Source: Squalus acanthias
Taxonomy: Eukaryota
Direction: 5' to 3'
Assembly (NCBI GenBank): GCA_030390025.1
Contig: CM059432.1
Location: forward strand, 35,776,001 to 35,840,000
DNA: 64,000 nt
Part shown: piece after piece, positions 1 to 59,340 of the stretch
Layout: every line of letters starts with the position of its first letter
How positions within the stretch are numbered: the stretch's first letter is position 1
Made by a program: the position numbers and the translations under genes
Notes under the pieces: generated by a model
What the model was told of the DNA's origin: nothing
The model's input: the letters and a program-made list of their open reading frames with translations, nothing else
Database searches by the model: none

Positions 1-2400
1 TTTCCTGATCCATTCTCATATATCCCCTGACATCCAAGGTTCCCTGCGGTTTTTGGAACCACCCTTGACCTTTACGGGAACATGCTGCCATTGTATGATC
101 ACAATCTCCCTTCTGAAAGAATCCCATTGCTCCGATGCGGATTTTCCTACAAGCAGCTGATCCCAGTCCATTTTGGCCAGATCCTGCCTTATCCTATTAA
201 AATCGGCCTTCCCCCAATTTAGAACCTTTATTTCCGGCCCATCCCTGTCCTTTTCCATGACCACCTTAAATCTCACCGTATTATGGTCACTGTCACCAAA
301 GTGCTCACCTACTAGCACTTCTTCCACTTGGCCGGCCACATTCCCTAGAATTAGGTCCAGTACCACCCCCTCTCTTGTAGGACTTTCTACATGCTGGCTC
401 AAAAAGCTCTCCTGGATGCACTTTAAGAATTCCGCACCCTCTAAGCCTTTCACACTCTGACTATCCCAGTTAATATTGGGGAAGTTGAAATCCCCCATTA
501 TTATTACCCTATTATTTGCACATTTCTCTGAGATTTGCCTACATATCTGTTCCTCTATCTCCCCCTGACTGTTTGGGGGCCTATAGTACGCTCCCAGCAA
601 AGTGCTTGCCCCCTTTTTGTTTTTAACCTCCACCCATATAGCCTCATTGGAGGAACCTGCTAATATATCATCCCTCCTTATGGCAGTAATTGATTCGTTA
701 ATTAATATTGCGACACCCCCTCCTCTTATACCTCCCCCTCTGTCTCGCCTCAAGATTCTGTACCCCGGAATATTGAGCTGCCAGTCTTGCCCCTCCCTCA
801 ACCATGTCTCCGTGATAGCAACAATATCATACTCCCATGTGTTTATCAACACCTTCAGTTCATCCACCTTATTCGCTAGACTCCTTGCATTAAAATAGAT
901 GCCTTCCAGCCTTGCTCTTACATGTTTGCCCTGTCTTCCAAGCGGACTTGTTTTTTTCTCTATATTTGACTGTACATCACCCCCTATTGTAGCTCCACTC
1001 TGAATCCCATCCCCCTGCCAAGTTAGTTTAAACCCCCTCCCAACAGTGCTAGCAAACCTCCCCGCAAGGATATTTGTCTCGCTCTGGTTCAGGTGCAAAC
1101 CGTCCGACTTGTACAAGTCCCACCTTCCCCAGAAGCAGGCCCAGTGATCCAGGAAACTAAAACCCTCCCTCCTGCACCAACTCTTTAGCCACGCATTCAT
1201 CTGTTCTATCCTCCTATTCCTATACTCACTAGCACGTGGCACTGGGAGTAATCCAGAGATTACAACCTTTGAGGTCCTGCTCTTTAATCTGCTGCCTAGC
1301 TCCCTAAATTCTTGATGCAGGACCTCATCCCCCTTCCTACCTATGTCGTTGGTCCCAATGTGAACCACGACCTCTGCCTGCTCACCCTCCCCCTTAAGAA
1401 TGCCCTGTAGCCGCTCAGTGACATCCATGACCCTGGCCCCAGGGAGGCAACAAACCATCCTGGAGTCACTTTTACGGCCACAGAAACGCCTATCTGTTCC
1501 CCTTACGATAGAATCCCCTACCACTATTGCTCTCCCACTCTTTTTCCTCCCTTTCTGAGCAGCAGAAGCAACCCTGGTGCCAGGAAGTTGGCTGCTGCCG
1601 CTCTCCCCTGGTGAGTCATCCCCCTCAACAGTATCCAAATCGGTATACCTGTTTGAAAGGGGGATGACCGCAGGGGTTCCCTGTACTCCCTGCCTGCCTC
1701 TGCTGCTCCGCCTGATGGTCACCCATTTCCCTTCTGCCTGTGCAGCCCTACCCTGCGGCGTGACCAACTCGTTAAACGTGCTATCCACGACCCTCTCAGC
1801 ATCGCGTATGCTCCAAAACTCATCCACCCGCAGCTCAAGCGCCGCAATGCGGTCTACAAGTAGCTGCAACTCGATGCATTTCTCGCACACGTGGTCCCCA
1901 GGGACACTGGCAGCGTCCCTGAATTCCCACATGGAGCAAGAGGAGCATAACACGGGGCTGATCTCACCTGTCATGACCTACTCCCTTAATTAAATTTAAA
2001 ATGTATTCAATACCCCAGTTACAGATATACTCTAGGGCGCTTTATTTACCAACTGTCCCCACTACACCACAGAGACCCTAGAAATTTAACACCACAGAAT
2101 TTAAGCTTAAAAAGAGAGAAATACTCACCAACCAATCACTTACCTGTTTTTTGGTGACGTCACACTTCGATTATTTTTCCCTCCGAGTTCGGAGACTGGT
2201 ACGCCTTACCTGGTCTCTGGAGCCTTTTATAGGCCCACTGCCGCCGCTGAAACTCCCGCCGACGCTCTGAGGCCTTACCTGGTCTCTGGAGCCTTTTATA
2301 GGCCCACTGCCGCCGCTGAAACTCCCACCGACGCTCTGAGGCCTTACCTGGTCTCTGGAGCCTTTTATAGGCCCACTGCCGCCGCTGAAACTCCCGCCGC
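1..2400 (-). mobile_element. CR1 LINE with complete 5' end; ORF1 (Zn finger, coiled coil, SGNH esterase) fused in frame to the ORF2 APE endonuclease
   Basis: ORF 16..1974 has CxxC...CxxC, the GDS..., HIGTND and DGLHL esterase motifs, then NARS, ITETWL, GDFN and SDH endonuclease motifs. The TGA at 16..18 is followed by EWIRK, so it is probably a CGA>TGA decay. The element runs off the window. Confidence 0.93.
2203..2400 (-). repeat. About 2.9 copies of a 69-bp monomer at the CR1 5' end
   Basis: gccttacctggtctctggagcc recurs at 2203, 2272 and 2341; copies are near-identical. Confidence 0.95.
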
Positions 2401-8224: not shown

Positions 8225-8457
8225 TTATCCTTCTAGGCGGTGGAGGTGTTGGAGGTGCTGCCGAACAAGCCTTGGCGAGTTGCTGCAGTGCATCCTGTAA
8301 ATAGTACACACAGCAGCCACGGTATGCTGGTGGTGGAGTGAGTGGATGCTTAAGCTGGTGGGTGAAGTGCCGATCAAGCAGACTGCTTTGTCTGAGATAT
8401 GGGGTGGTGGGTGGGGAGAGAAGGGGTGTGTGTGTGTGTGTGTCTGGACAGCATGCT

Positions 8458-11400
8458 TACATACATAGATACATAGAAGATAGGAGCAGGAGTAGGCCAT
8501 CCGGCCCTTCGAGCCTGCTCCGCCATTTAATGAGATCATGGCTGATCCTCCAATTCAGTATCCCGTCCCCGCCTTCTCTCCGTAACCCTTAACCCCTTTT
8601 GCCTGTAGAAATATATCTAATTCCCTCTTAAATATATTTAATGAGCTGGCGTACACTGCCCTCTGTGGCAATGAGTTCCACAGGTTCACCACCCTCTGAG
8701 TGAAGAAATTCCCCCTCATTTCTGTCCTAAATGGTTTAGCCCTTATCCTTAAATTATGTCCTCTAGTTCTGTTCTCACCCGCCAAGGGAAACATTCCTTC
8801 TGCATCTAGTCTGTCTAGACCTGTCAGAATTTTATACACTTCTATGAGGTCCCCTCTCAATCTTCTAAACTCCAGTGTGTACATCCCTAAACTACATAGT
8901 CTCTCCTCATAGGTCAATCCCGCCATTCCTGGTATCAGCCTGGTGAATCGCCGCTGCACCCCCTCCATGGCAAGAACATCTTTCCTCAGATGAGGCGACC
9001 AAAACTGTACACAGTACTCGAGGTGTGGTCTCACCAGTGCCCTGTACAGCTGCAGCAAGGTATCCCTGTTCCTGTATTCCAACCCTTTTGCTATGAAGGC
9101 CAGCATACCGTTTGCCTTCTTGATCGCCTGTTGCACCTGCATGCTCGCCTTCAGTGACTGGTGTACAAGAACACCCAGGTCTCTCTGTACTTCCCCCTCT
9201 CCCAATTTATTGCCATTTAAATAATAATTTGCCCTCCCGTTCCTGCACCCAAGGTGGATAACTTCGCACTTGTCCACATTATAGTTCATCTGCCATTTAT
9301 CCGCCCAATCACCCAGTCTGTCCAAATCGCTCTGGAGCTTCCTGGTCTCCTCCTCTGAGCCCACCCCCCTCCTAGTTTAGTGTCGTCTGCAAATTTGGAA
9401 ATGCTGCATCCGACTCCCTGATCCAGGTCATTAATGTAAATTGTGAACAGCTGGGGACCCAGGACAGATCCCTGTGGTACCCCACTTGTTACTGCCTGCC
9501 ATTCAGAAAATGAGCCGTTTATTCCAACTCTCTGTTTTCTATCTGACAGCCAGTTCTCTATCCACGTCAATACTTTCCCCTTTATCCCATGAGCTTCAAT
9601 TTTCCCTGCTAATCTTTTATGTGGGACCTTATCGAAGGCCTTTTGGAAGTCCAGGTACACCACATCTACTGGCTCTCCCCCATCTATTTTACCAGTTACT
9701 TCCTCAAAAAATTCCAATAGATTAGTCAAGCACGATTTACCCTTTGTAAATCCATGTTGACTCTGTCCTATCCTGTCCCCATTTGCTAAGTGCTCCGCTA
9801 TTTCATCCTTAATGATGGACTCCAGCATTTTGCCCACAACTGATGTAAGGCTTACAGGTCTGTAATTACCTGCTTTTTCCCTACCCCCCTTTTTGAATAG
9901 TGGGGTAACGTTAGCTACCCTCCAATCCATGGGCACTGTTCCCGAGTCTAATGAATTCTGAAAAATCATACTTAGTGCATCCGCTATCTCTAGGGCCACC
10001 TCCTTCAGCACCCTAGGATGCATGTTATCAGGCCCTGGGGATTTGTCCGCCTTCAATCCCTTTAGCTTCCTTAACACCATATCCTTAGAGATATTGACTT
10101 GCGTCAGTTCCTCCTTTGCAAATGTCCCTATTTTTCCCGATATCCCAGGGAGGTTTTTTGTGTCTTCCTTCGTAAAGACTGACCCAAAGTATGCATTTAG
10201 TTGGTCTGCCATTTCCTTATTTCCCGTTATATATTCCCCCGTATCTGACTGCAATGGGCCAACTTTGGTTTTCACCAGTCTTTTCCTCTTGATATACTTA
10301 TAAAAGCTTTTGGAGTTAGTTTTTATATTTTCCGCCAGCTTGCTTTCGTAAGCTATTTTGCCCCTCTTGATTAAGCCCTTTGTCCTCCTTTGCTCTATCT
10401 TAAACTGTTCCCAATCTTCCGCTCTGGCGCTTTTTTTGGCTATTTTATACGCCCTATCTTTGGATTTTATGCTGTCTCTAATTTCCCCTGTTATCCACGG
10501 TTGAGTCACCTTTTTAGATTTCCTTTTATGCCAGATTGGTATAAACAATTTTTGCAATTTTGTCATTCTATCTTTAAATGCTTGCCATTGTTTATCTACC
10601 TCCAGTCCTCCCAGGAACGTTGTCCAATCAGACCTACTCAGTTCCCGTCTAATGGCATCATAATTCCCCTTGTTTAAATTCAGGACCTTAGTATCTGAGT
10701 CAATTTCTTCGCTCTCCATTTCGAGTGAGAAATCGATCATGTTATGATCGCTCTGACCCAAGGGTCCCCGTACAACAAGATTACTAATTAGTCCCTTCTC
10801 ATTGCACAGTACCCAGTCCAATATAGCCTGTTCCCGAGTTGGTTCCTCGACATATTGATCCAGATAACCATCCCTTAAACACTCAAGGAATTCCTCCTCC
10901 TCATTATTTTTACTGATTAGGCTATTCCAATCTATATGTAAGTTAAAGTCACCTATGATGACAGCTGTGCTCTTATTGCACGCTTCTCTAATTTCCCTCG
11001 TGATGCCCTCCCCAACCTCTATTTTACTATTTGGAGGCCTATATACCACTCCTATTAATGTTTTTCGCCCCTTGCTATTTCTTAGCTCCACCCATATAGA
11101 TTCTGTATTAACTGAGTTAATATCCTTCCTTTCAATTGCATTTATCCCTTCTTTTACCAGCAATGCTACCCCTCCTCCCTTTCTTTTTTGTCGATCCTTC
11201 CTAAATACTGAATACCCCTGTATGTTAAGCTCCCAGCCCTGCTCACCCTGCAACCATGTTTCCGTAATCCCAATTAGATCATAATTATTAACCTCTATTT
11301 CCACAGCTAATTCATCTACCTTGTTCCTGATGCTTCTCGCGTTAAGGTATAAAACCCTCAGGCTTTTTTTATGCTCACATTTTTTATGAATTAGTTTGGC

Positions 11401-11590
11401 CCTTTGTTTTTTGTTCCTCACCCTTTTACCATTTATTTCTGTCTGCCTTTCACTTTCCTCTATTTCACTACATAGGTTTCTAGCCCCCTGCCATACTAGT
11501 TTAAATGCTCCCGAACTGCTTTATCAAAAATTACCCCGAGAACATCAGTTCCATCTTTGCACAGGTGTAGACCGTCCCTTTTGTATAGGT
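8458..11590 (-). mobile_element. Young CR1 LINE with near-intact ORF2 (APE + RT), 5'-truncated within ORF1
   Basis: ORFs 9286..11421 ([19 protein letters not shown]) and 8555..9364 are separated by one frameshift in a G run near 9365. ORF1 ends AVREHLN* at 11496. Simple-repeat tail near 8460. Confidence 0.95.
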
Positions 11591-13447
11591 GTGTGATGGG
11601 TGCCACTGAAAATGACATATAGCAGTGGCTAGGGGGACACACCAGATACTGCTGGTCAAAACACTTGGATTTGTCCATATTGTCCTGGCAACAGGGGATT
11701 GAGGATTCCCATAGTCCATCTGATCATCAGATCTGACACTGCTGCTGTGCATCATTACTCCTCTTATCTTTCTTCGCATTCGCCCCACCTGTACTGAAGG
11801 CACTGACTCTTGTTGGTGCACAGTCCAGTGGGTGCCAGCATTCCTCATGCATGAGCATTGATGAGCGATTCAGCTATGCGGGGCATCATGGCTGAGCCTG
11901 ACCCTGTCCCCATAAATAAGCTCTTTCCAGCAGGGTCATCGGATAGCATTCAAGGAACCTTGGCGGGGTTTGCTGCTTCCCTAGCCCTGGGGTGCTGAGG
12001 CCAATTATAATGCCCTTATTGCTGCCCAACACAGATGGGGATCAAACCTTGGTCCTTCCTGGTTGGTATGGCTCATGCAACTTGGTGCTTTTATCCAATT
12101 GTAGTACTGGGAGAGGTCCTTAGCAACTTCGTTAGTGACTGGTGATCTGTTTGATATTGTTTGTGTGTCTACGAGTCTGTACATGTGTATTTCTTTTCAT
12201 GTGTTTGCATGCATTTGATCTTGTCTGTGTTTCTGTCCATGTTGGTATGTTTGTGGCCTTGTGTCTTTTTAACATTTTTAAACCGCCTGTAGATTTAGGG
12301 ACCATCTCTGTACTGGTGACGATTCTCATTGTCGTATACTCAAAAAAAAATATTTCTGGATGTCAGGCGAGAACAGGATCAGGTCTGACAGTGGTGACCT
12401 CAAACAGCCTGCCTACACTCGCTGTCTGGGGCCACACATTAGGAGTAGCCACTTGGGCAAGGTACTAATGGGCAACTAGTGCCTGTGGAATTGCAGCTCA
12501 GCAAGGGGCTCAATACCTTTGGGATAGGAGGGAGGGGATAAAATTAGAGAAGTAATCATTTGTGATGCCAAATTGATGATCCCACCATGGCAGTTTGAGA
12601 ATGTTAATTCAGGTTTTTTTAAAATCTGGAAATAAAAAGCTGGTACCAGTAAAAGTGGCCATGAAGCTGTCAGATTTCGTAACATACCAACTGGTTCACT
12701 AATGTCCTGTGGGGAAGGAAACTTGCCGTCCTCACCTGGTCTGGCCTATGTATGACTCCAGTCCCACACCAGCGTGGTTGATTCTTCACTGCCCTGTGAA
12801 GTGGCCGAGCAAACCACTCCGTTGTATCAAACCATTACCAGCGGTTCAAGAAGAAAGCCCATTACCACCTTCTCTGGGCAACTAGGGATGGGGAATAAAT
12901 GACACCCTTGCCAGAGACACCCACATCCCAAGAATGGGAAAAAAAAATTAATCATGCACTATTGATATGCCTCCCATTGCGCACAAGTAATCCAGAGAAA
13001 AAAATGGTTTTAACACCATGGCGCTCCTCACTTAGTTTTTTTGGTAAATGCACTGCCTAGTGTGGAACTGAGACATACAGATTAAGAAGGTGTCATGTTT
13101 GATCTCTGGTCTGTGTTGAGTCGGGGCAGTAGAAGAAGGCATGCTTTAATTGGCGAGACAGAGAAAGAAAATCAGTAAGGGATCTACTCCTGATCACTGT
13201 TCCAGTTCTAGAATGTGCGTAAATGAGGACATCTGGTGAGTACAGGATTGGGCTTAGTTGTGCAGCCCTCGTGGTCCAATAGCCCACCGACACTTACTCA
13301 TCGAGCTCGCACGTTAATAACGATGACTTGAGCAAGCTATCAGAGGAGGGCTGTGAAACCGAGTCAGCCCCTTCAGGGGAAGAGGGGAAGGAAATAAAAG
13401 GAAGTGAACTCCTTTACCTGATCATGTCATTCTTTCTCTTGTTTCAG

Positions 13448-25300: not shown

Positions 25301-26895
25301 TTCATCTACACACTTAGTTACCTCCTCAAAGAATTCAACCAAATATCGATTGGGATAATGTGGGAAAATGTGAGGTTATCCACTTTGGTAGGAAGGATAA
25401 AAAAGCAAAATATTATTTAAATGGAGAGAAACTACAGAATGCTGTAGAGGGATCTGAATGTCCTCGTACATGAAACACAAAAAGTTAGCATGCAGGTACA
25501 GCAAGTAATTAGGAAGGCAAATGGAATATTGGCCTTTATTGCAAGGGGGATGGAGTATAAAAGTAGGGAAGTCTTGCTACAACTGTACAGAGCGTTGGTG
25601 AGACCACACCTGGAGTACTGTGTACAGTTTTGGTCTCCTTATTTAAGGAAGGATATACTTGCATTGGAGGCAGTTCAGAGAAGGTTCACTAGGTTGATTT
25701 CTGAGTTGAAGGGGTTGTCTTATGAGGAAAGGTTGAGCAGGTTGGGCCTATACTCATTGGAGTTTAGAAGAATGAGAGGTGATCTTATTGAAACATATAA
25801 AATTCTGAGGGGGCTTGACAGGGTAGATACAGGGAGGATGTTTCCCCTCGTGGGGGAATCTAGAACTAGTGAGCATAGTTTCAGAATAAGGGGCCGCCCA
25901 TTTAAAACGGAGATGAGGAGGAATTTCTTCTCTGAGGGTCGTGAATCTTTGGAATTCTCTACCCCAGAGAGCTGTGGAGGCTGAGTCGTTGAATATATTC
26001 AAGGCGGATATAGCCAGATTTTTGAAAAACAGGGGAATCAAGGGTTATGGGGAGCGGGCAGGAAAGTGGAGTTGAGGCCAAGATCAGGTCAGCCATGATC
26101 TTATTGAATGGTGGAGCAGGCTTGAGGGGCCGAATGGCCTATTCCTGCTCCTATTTCTTAAGGTGGGACCTGTACAAGCCGGATGGGTTACATCTCAACA
26201 GAGCCGGGACCAATATCCTTGCGGGGAGGTTTGTTAGTGCTGTTGGGGAGGGTTTAAACTAGCTTGGCAGGGGGGTGGGCACCAGCATATAGGAGTAGAA
26301 AAGGAATAAGGTGCATAAAAGGGTGATTGTGTTGGATAGTACTAGAGAAGATAGTACAAGAGGCGGTAGTAGTACCATATTAGATAAGAGCAGACTAAGA
26401 AAGACTACAAAAAATTCAAAAATGGGTTTAGAATGCATGTACATAAACGCACAAAGTGTGGTGAATAAGGTTGGTGAGCTACAAGCACAATAAGCTGTGT
26501 GGCAATATGATGCTGTGGCAATAACGGAAATGTGGCTTAAAACCGTTGAGGACTGGGCACTTAATATTCAAGGGTACAAGGTGTTCAGAAAAGATAGGGA
26601 AGGAAAAAAGGGAGGTGGGGTGGCAGTGTTGATTAAGGGAGACATTGTAGTGTTGGAAAAGGAGGATGTTCTTGGGGGGACAAGGACATAATCCATTTAG
26701 TTAGAGTTGAGGAGCAAAAAGGGTATGATCACGCTATTGGGGGTATTCTATAGGCCTCCAAATAGTGAGAGGGAGGTAGAGGAGCAAATCTGCAGGGAAA
26801 TCGCAGAGATATGCAAGAGCTATAAAGTGGTGATATTGGGGGACTTTAATTACCCAAATATCGATTGGGATAATGCTAGGGTAAAGGGAAAGGAG
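22346..26895 (+). mobile_element. CR1 LINE 5' half: 90-bp monomers, 5'UTR, decayed ORF1 from ATG 23046, start of APE; interrupted at 23853..26158
   Basis: Monomers at 22381, 22471 and 22561. ORF1 esterase motifs (VHIGTND, DGLHLN). ttctggggaag | aaggtgggacc rejoins across the insert. ORF1 ends VGEGLN* at 26262. Confidence 0.9.
23853..26158 (+). mobile_element. CR1 RT/3' fragment carrying an inverted younger CR1 fragment (~24104..25345, -)
   Basis: ORF 25490..25984 (+) and ORFs 24527..25342 and 24190..24633 (-). (catagaa)n tail near 24105..24127. Confidence 0.9.
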
Positions 26896-27316: not shown

Positions 27317-28744
27317 ATGACTCTATGAAGTAAATGGGAATCGGGGAAAACTCTCCACTGGCTGGAGTCATACCTAGCACAAAGGAAGATGGTTGTGGTG
27401 GTTGGAGGCCAATCATCTCAGTCCCAGGACATCGCTGCAGGAGTTCCTCAGGGCAGTGTCCTAGGCCCAACCATCTTCAGCTGCTTCATCAATGGCCTTC
27501 CCTCCATCATAAGGTCAGAAGTGGGGATGTTCGCTGATGATTGCACAGTGATTCGCAACTGCTCAGATAATGAAGCAGTCCGTGCCCGCATGCAGCAATA
27601 ACTGGACGACATCCAGGCTTGGGCTGTTAAGTGGCAACTAACACTCGCGCATACAAGTGCCAGGTAATGACTATCTCCAACAAGAGAGAGTCCAACCACC
27701 TCGCCTTGACATTCAATGGCATTACCATCGCCGAATCCCCCACCATCAAAATCCTGGGGGGTCACCATTGATCAGAAACTTAGCTGGACCAGCCACATCA
27801 ACACCGTGTCTACAAGAGTAGGTCAGAGGGTGTGTATTTTGCAGCGAGTGTCTCCCCTCCTGACTCCACAAAGCCTTTCCACCATCTACAAGGCAGAAGT
27901 CAGGAGTGTGATGAAATACTCTGCACTTGCCTGGATGAGTACAGCTCCAACAACACTTAAGAAGCTCGACACCATCCAGGACAAAGCAGCCCGCTTGATT
28001 GGCACCCCATCCACCACCTTAAACATTCACTCCCTGCTGCTTCGGCACACCGTGGCTGCAGTGTGTACCATCTACAAGATGCATTGCAGCAACTCGCCAA
28101 AGCCTCTTCGGCAGCACCTCGCAAACCCACAACCTCTAGCAAATGGAAGGATAAGGGCAGCAGGCACATGGGACACCTCCAAGTTCCCCTCCAAGTCACA
28201 CACCATCCTGACTTGGAAATATATCGCCGTTCCTTCATCGTCACTGGGTCAAAGTCCTGGAACTACCTCCCTAACAGCACTGTGGGAGTACCTTCACCAC
28301 AAGGACTGCAGCGGTTTAAGAAGGCGGCTCACCACCACCTTCTCAAGGGCAATTAGGGATGGGCATTAAATGCTGGCCTTGCCAGCAACACCCACATCCC
28401 AGGAATGAATAAAAACATTTTTTTTAAATCCACCACCTTCAACATTCACTCCCTCCACCACCGGCACACCGTGGCTGCAGTGTTTACCATCTAAAAGATG
28501 TGCTGCAGCAATTCGCCAAGGCTTCTTCGGCAGCACCTCCCAAATCCGCGACCTCTACCACCTAGAAGGACAAGGGCAGCAGACACATGGGAACACCACC
28601 TTCTGCAAGTTCCCCTCCAAGTCACACACCATCCTGTCCTATGTTCCCTGGAATTTTTTTTGGTCCAGCACGGCCCCTTTATTTGTGTCGGCATTCCATC
28701 TGAACAACAATGCTGCCAGGAAAGAACTGAACATATCCTTCTGC

Positions 28745-35956: not shown

Positions 35957-37597
35957 CATATCTAAGGAGGATTGGAAGATTGTGGCCAGCACCTCCGCAA
36001 TTTCTACCCTTACTTCCTTCAGTAACCTAGGATGCATCCCATCCGGACCGGGTGACTTATCCACTTTAATTACCGCCAGCCTGTCCAGTACCTCCTCTTT
36101 ATCTATTTTTATCTCATCCAGTATCCCAGCAACCTCCTCGTTTACCATAGCTTTGGCAAAGTCCTCTTCCTTGGTAAACACCAATGCAAAATACTCATTT
36201 AGTACCTCAGCCATGCCTTTTGCCTAAACCAATAGATCTCCATTTTGGTCCCTAATCGGCCTCACTGCTCCTCTGACAACCCTTTTACTGTTAATATGCC
36301 TATAGAAGACCTTTGGATTCCATTTTGTTAGCTGCCAATCTGTTCTCGCACTGTCTCTTTGCCCCTCTTATTTCCTTTTTCACTTCTCCTCTGTACTTTT
36401 TATATTCAGCCTGATTCTCTCTTGTATTATCGAACTGACATCTGTCATATGCCCCCTTTTTCTGCTTCACCTACTCTCCAACTCCTTCGTCATCCAGGGA
36501 GCTCTGGTTTTGGTTGCCCTCCTATTTCCCCCTTGTAGGAATGTACGTAGACTGTACCCGAACCATCTCTCTTTAAAGGCCGCCCATTGCTCCATTAAAT
36601 TTTTGCATGCCAGTCTTTGACTCCAATTTATCTAGGCCAGATCCCTCCTCAATTTGCTGAAATTAGCCCTCCTCCAGTTATGTATTTTTATTCTAGATTG
36701 CTCCTTGTCCTTCTCCATAACTAATCTAAACCTTACGATACTATGATCACTATTCCCAAGATGCTCTCCAACTGTGATATTCTCCACTTGACCCACTTCA
36801 TTCCTAAATCTAGCAATGCCTCCTTCCTCGTTGGGCAGGAAACATACTGATCAAGAAAATTCTCCTGAACACACTTCAGAATTTCCTCCCCTTCTCTGCC
36901 CTTAACACAATCAATATTGGAGTAATTAAAGTCTCCCATTATCACTGCTCTATAGTTCTTGCACTTCTCAGTAATTTCTCTGCAAATCTGCTCCTCTATC
37001 TCCTTCCCACTATTTGGTGGCCTATAAAATACACCAAGTAATGTAGTAGCTGCTTTATTGTTTCTCAACTCCAACCAAATAGATTCTGTCTTTGATCCCT
37101 CAAGGACATTCTCTCTTTCTAGCACTGTAATATTTTCCTTAATCAAAACTGCTACCCCTCCTCCTTTTTTTCCTGTCCCTATCTTTCCTGAATACCTTGT
37201 ATGTAGGAATATTAAGAATCCAATCCTTGCCTTTTTTGAGCCAGGTTTCAGTTATCGCCACTACGTCATATTCTCACGTGGCTATTTGCGCCTGCAGCTC
37301 ACCAACCTTATTAACCACACTTTGTGCATTTACGCACACTCCAAACCTAACTTAGACCTCTTTGTATTTTCTATGATCCCACCTAATTCTGTATTATTTC
37401 TACCTCTAACTGTCTTTCCTAGTCCTCTGTGCACCTTGTTTCTACTTTTTAATACTACATCCTGGTGCCTAACCCCCTTGCGAATTTAGCTTAAACCCAC
37501 CCCCACAGCACATAGCTAACCTGCCCACAAGGATATTGGTCCCAGCTCTGTTCAGATGCAACACGTCCATCTTGAACAGGTCCCTCCTGCCACAGAA

Positions 37598-55560: not shown

Positions 55561-57399
55561 AAAGTATTTATTTAATTTCCCTGCCATTTCCTTATTCCCC
55601 AGTATAATTTCTCCTGTCTCAGCCTGTAAGGGACCCACATTTACTTTTGCTAATCTTTTCCTTTTTACATACCTATAGAAGCTTTTACAGTCTTTTTATG
55701 TCTGTCGCTAGTTTACTCTCGTATTCTATTTTCCCTTTCTTTATCAATTTCTTGGTCCTCCTTTGCGAAATTCTAGAATCCTCCCAATCCTCAGGCTTAC
55801 TACTCTTTTTGGCAACATTATAAGCATCTTCCTTTGATCTAATACTATCTTTAACTTCTCTTGTTAGCCACGGTTGGACCACATTTCCTGTGGGGGGTTT
55901 AGTGCCTAAAAGGAATGTATATTTGGAATAAATTATTTATTAATTCTTTAAATGCTAGCCATTGCTTGTCTACCATCATATCTTTTAATGTTGTTTCCCA
56001 ATCTACCTTAGCCAACTCGCCCCTCATACCTACATAGTTTGCTTTGTTTAGATTTAAGACCCTAGTTTTGGATTTAACTAAATCACTTTCGAACTTAATA
56101 TAAAATTCCATCATATTATGGTCACTCTTCCCTAAAGGCCCCTTTACTGCAAGATTGTTAATTAACCCTTTCTCATTGCACAATACTAGATCTAAAATGG
56201 CCTGTTCCCTAGTTGGTTCCTCAGCATACTGATCTAGAAAATTATCTTGTATACATTCCATGAATTCGTCCTCCACACTATTACTGCAAATTTGGTTTGC
56301 CCAGTCTATATGTAGATTAAAGTTCCCCCATGATTACTTTATTACCCTTGTTACATGAGCCTCTAATTTCCTGATTTATACTCTGCCCTACATTACAACT
56401 ACTGTTTGGGGGCCACTCTCACCAATATTTTCTGCCCTTTTCTGTTTCTTAGCTCCATCCAAACTGATTCTACTTCTTGATTTTCGGAGCTAAGATCCTT
56501 TCTCTCTACGTCTTTAGCCCATCCTTTAATATCAGGGCTACCCCTCCTCCTTTTCCATTTTGCCTATCTCTTCTAAAAGTTAAGTATCCTGGAATATTTA
56601 GTTCCCAACCTTGGTCACTTTGCAACCATGTCTCCGTAATGGCTCTTAGATCAAACCTATTAATTTCTATCTGAGCTATTAATTCATCTCTTTTGTTGCG
56701 AATGCTTCGCGCATTCAGATATAGTGCCTTTAGCTTTGACTTTTTTTCTATTTTTCCCTGATATCACCTTAGTCACTAATGCCCTATTACCTTTGTTACT
56801 CTCTCTGTCCTTTTCTGACCCACTCTGCTTATTTTTACCCAAAACTCTGCTCTGCTTTGGAGACTTGACATTTCTCTTGCTGCTTTTAAATTTACTCTTT
56901 CCTGAATCCTCCCACCGCCCCCTCCCCCCCACCCCCCGTCATTAGTTTAAAGCCCTGTCCACTGCCCTAGTTATTCAATTCGCCAGGACACTGGTTCCAG
57001 CCCAGTTTAAGTGGAGCCCGTCCCAACGGAACAGCTCCTTCTTTCCACAGTACTGGTGCCAGTGCCCCATGAAGCAAAACCCCTGCCTCCCACACCAAGG
57101 CCCCGTCTGCTCTTTCAGATGGACGTAAAAGATCCCATGGCACTATTTCGAAGAAGAGCAGGGGAGTTATCCCCGGTATCCTGGCCAATATTTATCCCTC
57201 AATCAACATCACTAAAACAGATTATCTGGTCATTATCACATTGCTGTTTGTGGAAGCTTGCTGTGCACAAATTGGCTGCCGCGTTTCCTACGTTACAACA
57301 GTGATTACACTTCAAAAGTACTTCATTGGCTGTAAAGCACTTTGGGACGTCCGGTGGTCGTGAATGACGCTATATAAATGCAAGTCTTTCTTTCACATA

Positions 57400-59340
57400 A
57401 TTGAAGTCCCCCAGCCCTGGTACCATTCCAGTGAATCTCCTCTGCATGCTCTCTAAGGCCTTGGCATCCTTCCTAAAGTGTGATGCCCAGAAGTGGCCAC
57501 ACTACTCCAACTGAGGCCTAACCAGTGATTTATAAAGGTTCAGCAGAACTTCCTTGCTTTCGTACTCTATACCTCTGTTTATAAAGCCAAGGATACCGTA
57601 TGCTTTTTTAACAGCCTTCTCAACGTGTCCTGCCACCTTCAAAGATTTGTGTACGTACACCCCCAGGCCTCTCTGTTCCTGCACCCTTTTTAAAATTGTA
57701 GCATTTAGTTTATATTGCCTTTCCTCATTCGTCCTACCAAAATGTATCACTTCACACTTTTCTGCATTAAATGTCATCTGCCATGTGTCTGCCCATTTCA
57801 CCAGTCTATGTCTGTTACTACCCACTGTTTATTACGTTTCTGAATTTTGTGTCATCTGCAAACTTTGAAATTATTTCCTGTATACCCAAGTCCAGGTCAT
57901 TAATATTTATCAAAAACAACAGTGTTCCTAATACCGAGCATTTATTGCCCGTGCCTAGTTGCCCTTGAGAAGCTGGTGGTGAGCCGCCTTCTTGAGCCGC
58001 TGCAGTCCGTGTGGTGAAGGTACCCCCACAGTGCTGTTAGGGAGGGAGTTCCAGGATATTGACCCAGCGATGATGAAGGAACGGCGATATACTTCCAAGT
58101 CAGGATGGTGTGTGACTTGGAGAGGAACTTGGAGGTGGTGGTTTTTCCATGCGCCTGCTGCCCTTGTCCTTCTAGGTGGTAGAGGTCGCGGGTTTGGGAG
58201 GTGCTGCCGAAGAAGCCTTGGCGAGTTGCTGCAGTGCATCTTGTAGATGGTACACACTGCAGCCACGGTACGCCGGTGGTGGAGGGAGTGAATGTTTAAG
58301 GTGGTGGATGGGGTGTCAATCAAGCGGGCTGCTTTTTCCTGGATGGTGTCGAGCTTCTAGTGTGTTGTTGGAGCTGCATTCATCCAGGCAAGTGGAGAAT
58401 ATTCCATCACACTCCTTACTTGTGCCTTGTAGATGATGGAAAGGCTTTGGGGAGTCAGGAGGTGAGACACTCGCCGCAGAATACCCAGCCTCTGACCTGC
58501 TCTTGATGCCACAATATTTATGTGGCTGGTCCAGTTAAGTTTCTAGTCAATGGTGACCCCCAGAATGTTAATAGTGGGGGATTCGGCGATGGTAATGCCG
58601 TTGAATGTCAAGAGGCGGTGATTAGACTCTCGCTTGTTGGAGATAGTCATTGCCTGGCACTTGTGTGGCGCGAATGTTACCTGCCACTTATCAGCCCAAG
58701 CCTGAATGTCGTCCAGGTCTTGTTGCATGCGGGCATAGACTGCTTCGTTATCTGAGGAGTTGTGAATGGCACTGAACACTGTGCAGTCATCAGCAAACAT
58801 CCCCATTTCTGACCTTATGTTGGAGGGAAGGCCATTGATGAAGCAGCTGAAGATGGTTGGGCCTAGGACACTGTCCTGAGGAACTCCTGCAGTGATGTCC
58901 TGGGGCTGTGATGATTGACCTTCAACCACCACAACCATCTTCCTTTGTGCTCGGTATGACTTCAGCCAGTGGAGAGTTTTCCCCCTGATTCCCACTGACT
59001 TCAGTTTTACTAGGGCTCCTTGATGCCACACTCAGTCAAATGCTGTCTTGATGTCAAGGGTAGTCACTCTCACCTCACCTCTGAAATTCAGCTCCTTTGT
59101 CCATGTTTGGACCAAGGCTGTAAAGAGGTCTGGAGCCAAGTGGTCCTGGCGGAACCCAAACTGGCCTTGGAGGATTCGAAGATTGTGGCCAGAGCCTCCG
59201 TTATTGCCACCCTTACTTCCCTCCCCAACCTTAAAAGCATCCCATTCAGACTGGGTGACTTTTCTACTTTGAACACTGCCAAACTTTCAAGTATCTCCTC
59301 TTTATCTATTTTCATCCTATTAATTTCTCTACTGCCTCCA
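57400..59340 (-). mobile_element. CR1 fragments (57400..57935, 59165..59340) flanking a CR1/L2-group LINE (57937..59165)
   Basis: RT-motif ORFs 57502..57825, 58543..59031 and 59088..59462. Confidence 0.85.

Follow-up and report, generated by a model that had tools for sequence, protein, structure and literature searches.

A slippery heptamer abutting the ORF1 stop codon as a candidate -1 ribosomal frameshift site in esterase-type CR1-group LINEs of a shark genome

Esterase-type CR1/L2 LINEs are the dominant retrotransposons of most vertebrates, and in non-mammalian vertebrates they form the LINE group of highest abundance. The manner in which the second gene of a bicistronic LINE is translated is an open question. 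In human L1, the two ORFs are separated by a spacer with neither an overlap nor a slippery site, a separate ORF2p is made, and ORF2 is reportedly reached by an unconventional termination/reinitiation, an account said to go back to Alisch et al. 2006. Excerpts of Odon et al. 2013 (PMC3708506) cite ORF2 translation in human L1 as AUG-independent and unconventional, describe a UAAUG coupling for SART1 of Bombyx, and call the mechanism of ORF2 translation in two-ORF non-LTR elements 'not clear'. With its bicistronic LINE RNA and dispensable ORF2 AUG, human L1 is comparable to the shark LINEs described here; however, L1 gives a separate ORF2p whereas an ORF1-ORF2 fusion is predicted for the shark elements. 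SART1 has ORF2 in the -1 frame relative to ORF1 and the junction at the ORF1 stop, as in the shark LINEs, and UAAUG or AUGA overlaps are also found in one shark lineage (B2) and in two distant relatives (L126 and L127). Unlike SART1, fourteen of the fifteen shark lineages have no AUG at the junction and carry a phased slippery heptamer there instead.

The retroviral/LTR gag-pol and coronavirus 1a/1b junctions use the same class of heptamer and the same logic that is proposed here, namely an abundant upstream protein and a rare polymerase fusion. A pseudoknot or hairpin 5-9 nt downstream is needed at these sites, whereas none is conserved in the shark LINEs, where, unlike at the retroviral and coronavirus sites, all lineages have the 0-frame stop immediately after the heptamer. 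A stop codon likewise adjoins the slip site in luteoviruses and dianthoviruses. U_UUA_AAC, the heptamer of the IBV site, ranks with those on which mammalian ribosomes shift most readily (PMC5009743); the excerpted text of that source mentions non-LTR elements only for HeT-A and TART. The ORF2 of the Dictyostelium elements TRE5-A and TRE3-A is said, in an excerpt of PMC5911963, to require a -1 frameshift. These are APE-type LINEs with a -1 frameshift ORF2, like the proposal made here, although they belong to another LINE clade and another host kingdom, whereas the shark elements have a defined U_UUA_AAC plus stop in fifteen lineages. Frameshifting at -1 is thus known for retroelements and is seemingly undescribed for CR1-group LINEs. 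No report of a frameshift for CR1 ORF2 was found in the excerpted literature on CR1 and esterase-type ORF1, an early remark in Haas 1997 or Kajikawa 1997 being possible, and the words frameshift, overlap, slippery and stop codon are absent from the excerpted text of a 2026 survey of vertebrate CR1-group elements (PMC13343379).

The window analyzed in this study is the whole stretch of 64,000 nucleotides, taken from a genome of 3.7 Gb in 3,882 contigs. The preliminary description of this window had proposed that its CR1 elements join ORF1 to an AUG-less ORF2 by a -1 frameshift on TTTAAAC, which stands immediately before a stop. A total of 21 occurrences of TTTAAAC were found in the window compared with 9.8 +/- 3.5 in shuffled sequence, and none of 100 shuffles reached 21. 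The elements are esterase-type LINEs of the CR1 group, where 'CR1' covers CR1/L2 and the assignment was made from domains and the 3' end. Their ORF2 matches the Pfam families Exo_endo_phos, Exo_endo_phos_2 and RVT_1, and the ORF1 of the copy at 1026 is of the esterase type (Lipase_GDSL_2); according to an excerpt of PMC13343379, vertebrate CR1 and L2 lineages have yielded no other type of ORF1. One copy was seen to end in an octamer tandem repeat instead of poly(A) (8461..8477, minus strand; an 8-nt unit repeated 2.1 times), and a 3' octamer repeat of the CR1 group is named in the excerpted text of PMC2612034.

This last copy, a young member of lineage C that is 5'-truncated at 11590, has the clearest reading frames across the junction. 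On the minus strand, a remnant of the ORF1 3' end encoding the esterase C-terminus (11506..11590) leads into the heptamer (11499..11505), which is read in the ORF1 frame as part of GAG CAT TTA AAC TAG (EHLN*), giving the phase U_UUA_AAC with ORF1 codons CAT TTA AAC. The ORF1 stop TAG (11496..11498) abuts the 3' side of the heptamer. In the -1 frame, a short window from an upstream TAA stop to the heptamer (11506..11520) reads SSSGA and contains no AUG, and the open stretch of this frame between two stops (9286-11520) measures 744 aa. The putative ORF2 (9286..11505) encodes an APE endonuclease (Exo_endo_phos, residues 60-259) and a reverse transcriptase (RVT_1, residues 546-714), preceded by a K/R/E-rich linker of about 54 codons counted from the heptamer F (11344..11498) that has no Met. 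Translation of the -1 frame bears out the earlier statement that its first Met comes only past the SDH motif. A G-tract GGCAGGGGG (11484..11492), in which a G5 run starts 11 nt past the heptamer, could be a candidate stimulator or could encode Gly residues of the linker.

TTTAAAC was verified at all four junction positions listed previously (11499-11505, 1026-1032 and 56945-56951 on the minus strand, and 26253-26259 on the plus strand), as was the TTTAAGC of a fifth, decayed copy (37489..37495, minus strand). The accompanying assertion that the heptamer is phased X_XXY_YYZ at these junctions holds for the copy at 11499 and for the decayed lineage-A2 copy at 26253, where ORF1 ends GEGLN* and the -1 frame reads FKLAWQGG. 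It does not hold at 1026, where the reported 'GLN*' end exists in the local frame only. In this near-full-length lineage-A3 copy, the G-run ahead of the heptamer (1033-1041) contains a surplus base that fuses ORF1 and ORF2 in the DNA, so that the true ORF1 frame continues unbroken and a single frame of 653 aa (16..1977, minus strand, near the window edge) runs from the Zn-finger/esterase ORF1 (Lipase_GDSL_2, residues 153-298) into the APE domain (Exo_endo_phos, residues 362-565). In the decayed lineage-B2 copy at 56945, the local frame ends ALN*, with a premature TGA nine codons upstream; a TGA comes after its stop codon, which shares bases with an AUG (UAAUGA).

The junction was sampled genome-wide from two sides. 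On the ORF1 side, a degenerate pattern for the esterase motif DGLHL, in which the heptamer was not used, matched 22,884 places versus 1,275 with the reversed control, and 70 of the first 100 DGLHL places listed along contig 1 formed the sample. The exact heptamer TTTAAACTA lies about 71 nt past DGLHL in 50 of these 70 places and is present with one to three mismatches in another 12. The eight places without the junction are false matches (e.g. an RT motif in L045) or interrupted copies. Among the 50 exact copies, 39 have the X_XXY_YYZ phase relative to the DGLHL codons (37 at a distance of +71, with distances of 77 and 83 likewise in phase), and 11 are off phase through indels that lie mostly within G-runs. 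Independently of this, a pattern for the APE motif ITETWL matched 47,965 places versus 49 in the control, and 20 short stretches were chosen from motif variants that had previously been unsampled. Fifteen of the 20 loci contain the heptamer, in 13 cases in frame with the APE domain; four others are 5'-truncated and one has a mutated heptamer. The combination of heptamer and stop is confirmed as real and extends far beyond the window.

Fifteen lineages (A1, A1b, A2, A3, A4, B1-B4, C, D, E, E2, F and G) were delimited by eye from their junction and linker sequences. The least damaged copy, also picked by eye, was taken to represent each lineage; all representatives come from one genome and the lineages share ancestry. 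The translated APE regions of the five lineages compared are only 43-55% identical, which suggests that the lineages are old. The eight nucleotides TTTAAACT were found to be invariant in all fifteen lineages and the following base is A in fourteen. Mean pairwise identity around the heptamer is 0.64 in the 45 nt upstream, which belong to the ORF1 coding sequence, against 0.49 downstream. The 100-nt junction of the fifteen-lineage alignment contains no further invariant run of more than 2 nt.

The heptamer is phased X_XXY_YYZ in all fifteen representatives and is abutted by a stop codon in each, the identity of which varies between TAA, TAG and TGA (TGA in E2). Directly ahead of the slip-site Leu stands GGT, GCT, CAT or GAT, which means that the residue varies (G, A, H or D) while the T in the third position, which supplies the first X of the heptamer, is constant across the fifteen lineages. 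Synonymous variation at the Leu-Asn codons, which had been named as a sign against the frameshift, was looked for and not found, as TTA AAC is used in all fifteen lineages. In the DGLHL motif, which lies 71 nt upstream, five and four different synonymous codons encode the two Leu residues among the nine lineages with this anchor. Such signatures are those that would be expected if ribosomes entered the ORF2 frame at the heptamer; ORF1 coding alone would not yield them.

The reading frame on the other side of the junction was examined in the same representatives. Going upstream from the heptamer, the -1 frame meets a stop after 1-6 codons in fourteen lineages and after 37 codons in A4, with no AUG between, and an ORF2-frame AUG at or near the ORF1 stop is absent in fourteen of the fifteen lineages, with UAAUGA in B2 as the sole exception. 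Since ORF2 has no start codon of its own and continues one base back from the heptamer and stop, it is most likely made by a -1 slip. In the 13 representatives that have the ITETW motif in frame, the distance from the heptamer to this motif is 72, 77, 77, 79, 82, 85, 87, 91, 93, 93, 94, 96 and 115 codons. As the motif is in frame in all 13 measurable representatives, the changes in linker length between lineages have all kept the frame set by the heptamer. The linker is free of stops in ten of the fifteen representatives and contains one in three others; the remaining two (B2 and D) are decayed. A conserved in-frame AUG upstream of the APE domain, another sign that would speak against the proposal, was not found in the 13 representatives with a readable frame: five of them (A4, C, E, E2 and F) have no Met ahead of the APE domain, and in the others its position differs, the linkers of A1, A2, A3, B1, B3, B4 and G containing Met codons. 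In several young copies with an unfused G8 run, ORF2 stays open until the examined locus ends, a length of 500 aa.

Features that could stimulate a slip were looked for downstream of the heptamer. No hairpin or pseudoknot conserved among the fifteen lineages was found, including in the 5-9 nt window (RNAalifold 0.0 kcal), and the z-scores of single-sequence folds, mostly between -1.8 and +2.1 with one at -2.3, were not better than those of shuffles. A run of at least four G residues starts 8 to 11 nt past the heptamer in fourteen of the fifteen lineages. When alignment positions are numbered from the first T of the heptamer, 13-15 of the fifteen lineages have G at each of positions 18-22. The peptide encoded over this tract is clade-dependent (WQGDG versus SGGGG), and the tract might simply represent Gly codons. 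According to an excerpt of Yu et al. (NAR 2014, PMC3919603), RNA G-quadruplexes can stimulate -1 frameshifting from a G-rich tract a few nucleotides past the slip site, a position like that in the shark LINE junctions. However, the constructs in that study were engineered, whereas the two-tetrad quadruplex motif is predicted in only ten of the fifteen shark lineages, is absent in the young lineage C, and is found likewise in 6-93% of composition-matched shuffles. A G-quadruplex as general stimulator is unsupported, as the motif does not exceed such shuffles. The adjacent stop appears to be the better candidate because it is the sole feature that is fixed in place while its sequence varies. As no hairpin or pseudoknot is conserved, the likely stimulators are the stop and perhaps the G-tract 8-11 nt downstream, and this would seemingly make the junction a natural eukaryotic -1 site that works without a hairpin.

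The fused frame of the copy at 1026 was followed through the genome with its ORF1 tail. In the 150 matches scored of 76,107 candidates (94-100% identity), the commonest ORF1 open frame is 317 aa, and 19 matches have frames of 545-1290 aa, with open frames of up to 1238-1290 aa in fused copies. Seven of 30 lineage-A3 loci were found to be fused through a nine-base spacer replacing the eight-base G-run, and none has G7. Six of the seven nine-base spacers are G-runs of nine (one A-interrupted) and the seventh has an extra T before G8. Of 1,566 matches, 100 positionally listed A3 copies were counted by hand: 61 have the -1 layout (49 of them with a spacer of exactly eight bases), 21 are fused (+1) and 18 are in the third frame (+2). 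On a tree of 27 copies, which is poorly resolved with 14 of its 24 inner branches open, the seven fused copies need six changes, and 249 of 500 label shuffles were as low.

Fused copies as a separate, natively single-ORF lineage were considered and rejected, as these copies are scattered on the tree and the +1 class (21) is about as large as the +2 class (18). The fusion is recurrent homopolymer noise or assembly error and does not define a lineage. Since the fused copies are scattered on this poorly resolved tree, the frame-separated form, which would require a frameshift, is the one that appears to propagate. The lengths of G-runs can be misassembled. Lineage B1 had appeared to be a stop-readthrough variant, its first five copies having the APE domain in frame 0 behind UAA through a one-base difference in the G-run 8 nt past the heptamer. 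This was rejected by a census of 100 of its 826 matches, also counted by hand, in which 71 copies have the length of the -1 layout, 10 exceed it by one base and 7 fall one base short of it; the frame is kept in 72, with 15 at +1 and 13 at +2. The -1 layout is the native state of lineage B1.

Two raw RNA-seq runs carrying the same species label contain 373 and 612 reads on positions 11250-11650, and cover the heptamer at about 77-110x. Within 11430-11556, these 985 reads contain no indel, joint or variant at a frequency of at least 3%, so that the ORF1 and ORF2 frames of the lineage-C junction stay apart in RNA. A splice upstream of the APE domain, also named beforehand as evidence against a frameshift, would appear as a joint in these reads and none was seen. 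The RNA reads argue against splicing or transcript editing as the means of joining the frames, at least for lineage C. Coverage ends at 11590, where 149 reads continue into other sequence; these reads would thus come from longer family members, the copy in the window being 5'-truncated. The strand signal over the junction is mixed, and the transcripts need not be element-driven.

The reading that we consider probable, on comparative grounds, is a stop-adjacent -1 ribosomal frameshift on U_UUA_AAC that gives an ORF1-ORF2 fusion. In this mechanism, most ribosomes would terminate at the stop after the heptamer and release free ORF1p (317 aa in the youngest family), while a minority would slip back one base on the last two sense codons of ORF1, read CUA next, and so reach the ORF2 (APE and RT) that lacks a start codon. 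The slip could be a tandem slippage of tRNA-Leu and tRNA-Asn or a slippage of the P-site tRNA-Asn with the stop in the A site, and the adjacent stop, perhaps together with the downstream G-tract, would act as stimulator. The slipped ribosomes would make an ORF1-linker-APE-RT fusion of about 1240-1290 aa, which would work as a ratio device of the gag/gag-pol kind. From the observed anatomy and conservation of the junction we infer the slip itself, its efficiency and the fusion as the active form. The gag-pol-like fusion put forward in the preliminary description is supported by the comparative evidence, and neither of the two refutation tests that were run refuted it.

Other routes to ORF2 have to be weighed against this frameshift. 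Termination-dependent reinitiation, or coupling, in which a ribosome moves back by a few bases, restarts in the -1 frame with no AUG and makes a separate ORF2p, as compared with SART1 and L1, would account readily for the stop that lies directly at the junction in all fifteen lineages, and the 'not clear' two-ORF mechanism in the excerpted text of Odon et al. 2013 (PMC3708506), beside its account of SART1 coupling, leaves room for it. It is further favoured by the UAAUGA of lineage B2, in which the AUG is in the ORF2 frame, and by the fact that no strong frameshift stimulator was seen. A scan of metagenomes yielded seven distant CR1-like APE loci of 27-38% identity, all without the heptamer; in the two relatives with a visible upstream ORF (L126 and L127), the TGA stop and the ATG of ORF2 share bases (ATGA), the frame relation here too being -1. 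Taken with B2, these overlaps imply that the ORFs stood in a -1 relation before the heptamer arose, and they make stop-start coupling a real alternative in the wider clade. In the shark elements, however, reinitiation leaves the seven invariant and X_XXY_YYZ-phased bases 5' of the stop unexplained, together with the wobble T that is kept while its residue changes and the absence of TTA and AAC synonyms, and fourteen of the fifteen lineages have no ORF2-frame AUG at or near the stop. We therefore regard reinitiation as unlikely, if deserving of serious attention.

Slippage at the level of nucleic acid is highly improbable as the main route. Here, one-base changes in G-runs made by RNA polymerase, by reverse transcriptase or during replication would create in-frame templates that express ORF2. 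Such changes are common enough in the DNA, where the A3 spacer classes 0/+1/+2 are 61/21/18 per 100 copies, the B1 frame is kept in 72 of 100 with 15 at +1 and 13 at +2, and the open frames of fused copies reach 1238-1290 aa. However, +1 and +2 are nearly equal in A3 (21 and 18), as neutral noise predicts, the fused copies are scattered on the tree, and lineages C and G, among others, have no long homopolymer at the junction. The RNA reads over the junction of lineage C, as distinct from A3 with its G8, contain no indel at 3% or above (985 reads), and the conserved heptamer has no explanation under this scheme. It would be more improbable still that no recoding takes place at all, with ORF2 supplied in trans or translated from internal AUGs and the conserved bases serving the ORF1 C-terminus or some other RNA or DNA signal. 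The Met codons in the linkers of A1, A2, A3, B1, B3, B4 and G and the constant Leu-Asn end of ORF1 could be read in this way. However, five of the 13 representatives have no Met before the APE domain and its position is unconserved elsewhere, the first Met of lineage C lies behind the catalytic SDH motif, the linker frame is kept over 72-115 codons, and a requirement of the ORF1 protein cannot account for the conserved wobble T or the fixed choice of codons.

A -1 frameshift at this junction provides a concrete hypothesis, testable with reporters, for second-gene translation in bicistronic LINEs. The predicted ORF1-ORF2 fusion would alter models of cis-preference and RNP assembly, and annotators may note that 'AUG-less' CR1 ORF2s are not necessarily dead. 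As a tentative and rather doubtful extension, esterase-type CR1/L2 LINEs may generally express ORF2 as a fusion by a hairpin-free, stop-adjacent -1 frameshift that is helped by the stop and the G-tract. If this is general, LINE particles would assemble on gag/gag-pol logic and not on the two-protein model of L1.

Relatives outside the source genome were also looked for. A protein search returned five hits only, from two ray species and a contaminant of a bacterial assembly, all of which start at an internal Met or at a contig edge, and none of them spans the junction. In a scan of other genome contigs, the single match was a 741-nt contaminant that ends short of the junction. The stretch of the lineage-C junction also occurs in near-identical form in runs labelled as several organisms.

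The sequence immediately 5' of the heptamer TTTAAAC was found to be hypervariable in lineage A3, where a G-run directly precedes the proposed frameshift site (window 1033-1041 on the minus strand; loci L003-L032, L044, L050, L055 and L061). Among 100 copies of this lineage, the spacer before the heptamer varies from 5 to 16 bases, with G-runs reaching about 15, and therefore 39 of the copies are out of frame relative to the family layout. One-base expansions were observed twice as often as contractions in the same copies (14 versus 7). Homopolymer assembly error may account for part of this variability.

Stop-start overlaps near the ORF1/ORF2 junction were observed in two settings. The lineage B2 copies carry the heptamer together with UAAUGA (window 56936-56951 on the minus strand; loci L036, L056, L074 and L078), which supplies a frame-0 double stop and an AUG in the ORF2 frame that overlaps the first of these stops. 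The UAAUG pentanucleotide in this arrangement is identical to the coupling site of the Bombyx element SART1. An ATGA overlap was found in distant CR1-like LINEs on two metagenome contigs (L126:340-370 and L127:1540-1575), in which the APE identity is 32-33% and ORF2 has a -1 frame offset from the ORF preceding it.

For lineage C, represented in the window by a young copy, 149 RNA reads and one contig depart from the window sequence exactly at position 11590 and continue into one common sequence with an agreement of 0.97-1. This departure locates the point at which the copy is 5'-truncated, and it shows that longer members of the family are transcribed. Directly past the 3' end of the copy lie a microsatellite of nine GT units and a repeat of 22 nt (8394-8443). 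At least 71% of the 31-letter words sampled from window positions 10900-11650 are present in sequencing runs labelled with seven organisms (codes A-G), which reflects either near-identical copies common to close relatives or a recent spread of the family. From this set, run X2 of organism A was aligned to the window, alongside three runs under other labels.

Vertebrate CR1 fragments were also found in two bacterial records, namely a 741-nt genome contig catalogued under Aeromonas cavernicola (L130) and a 966-aa ‘hypothetical protein’ catalogued under Carnobacterium maltaromaticum (protein-search match P0001). In both cases, host DNA has probably contaminated sequences from fish-associated isolates.

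Finally, the window contains fragments of a second, distinct RT-bearing LINE family, at 27329-28369 on the plus strand and 58543-59031 on the minus strand, with a motif of 22 residues.
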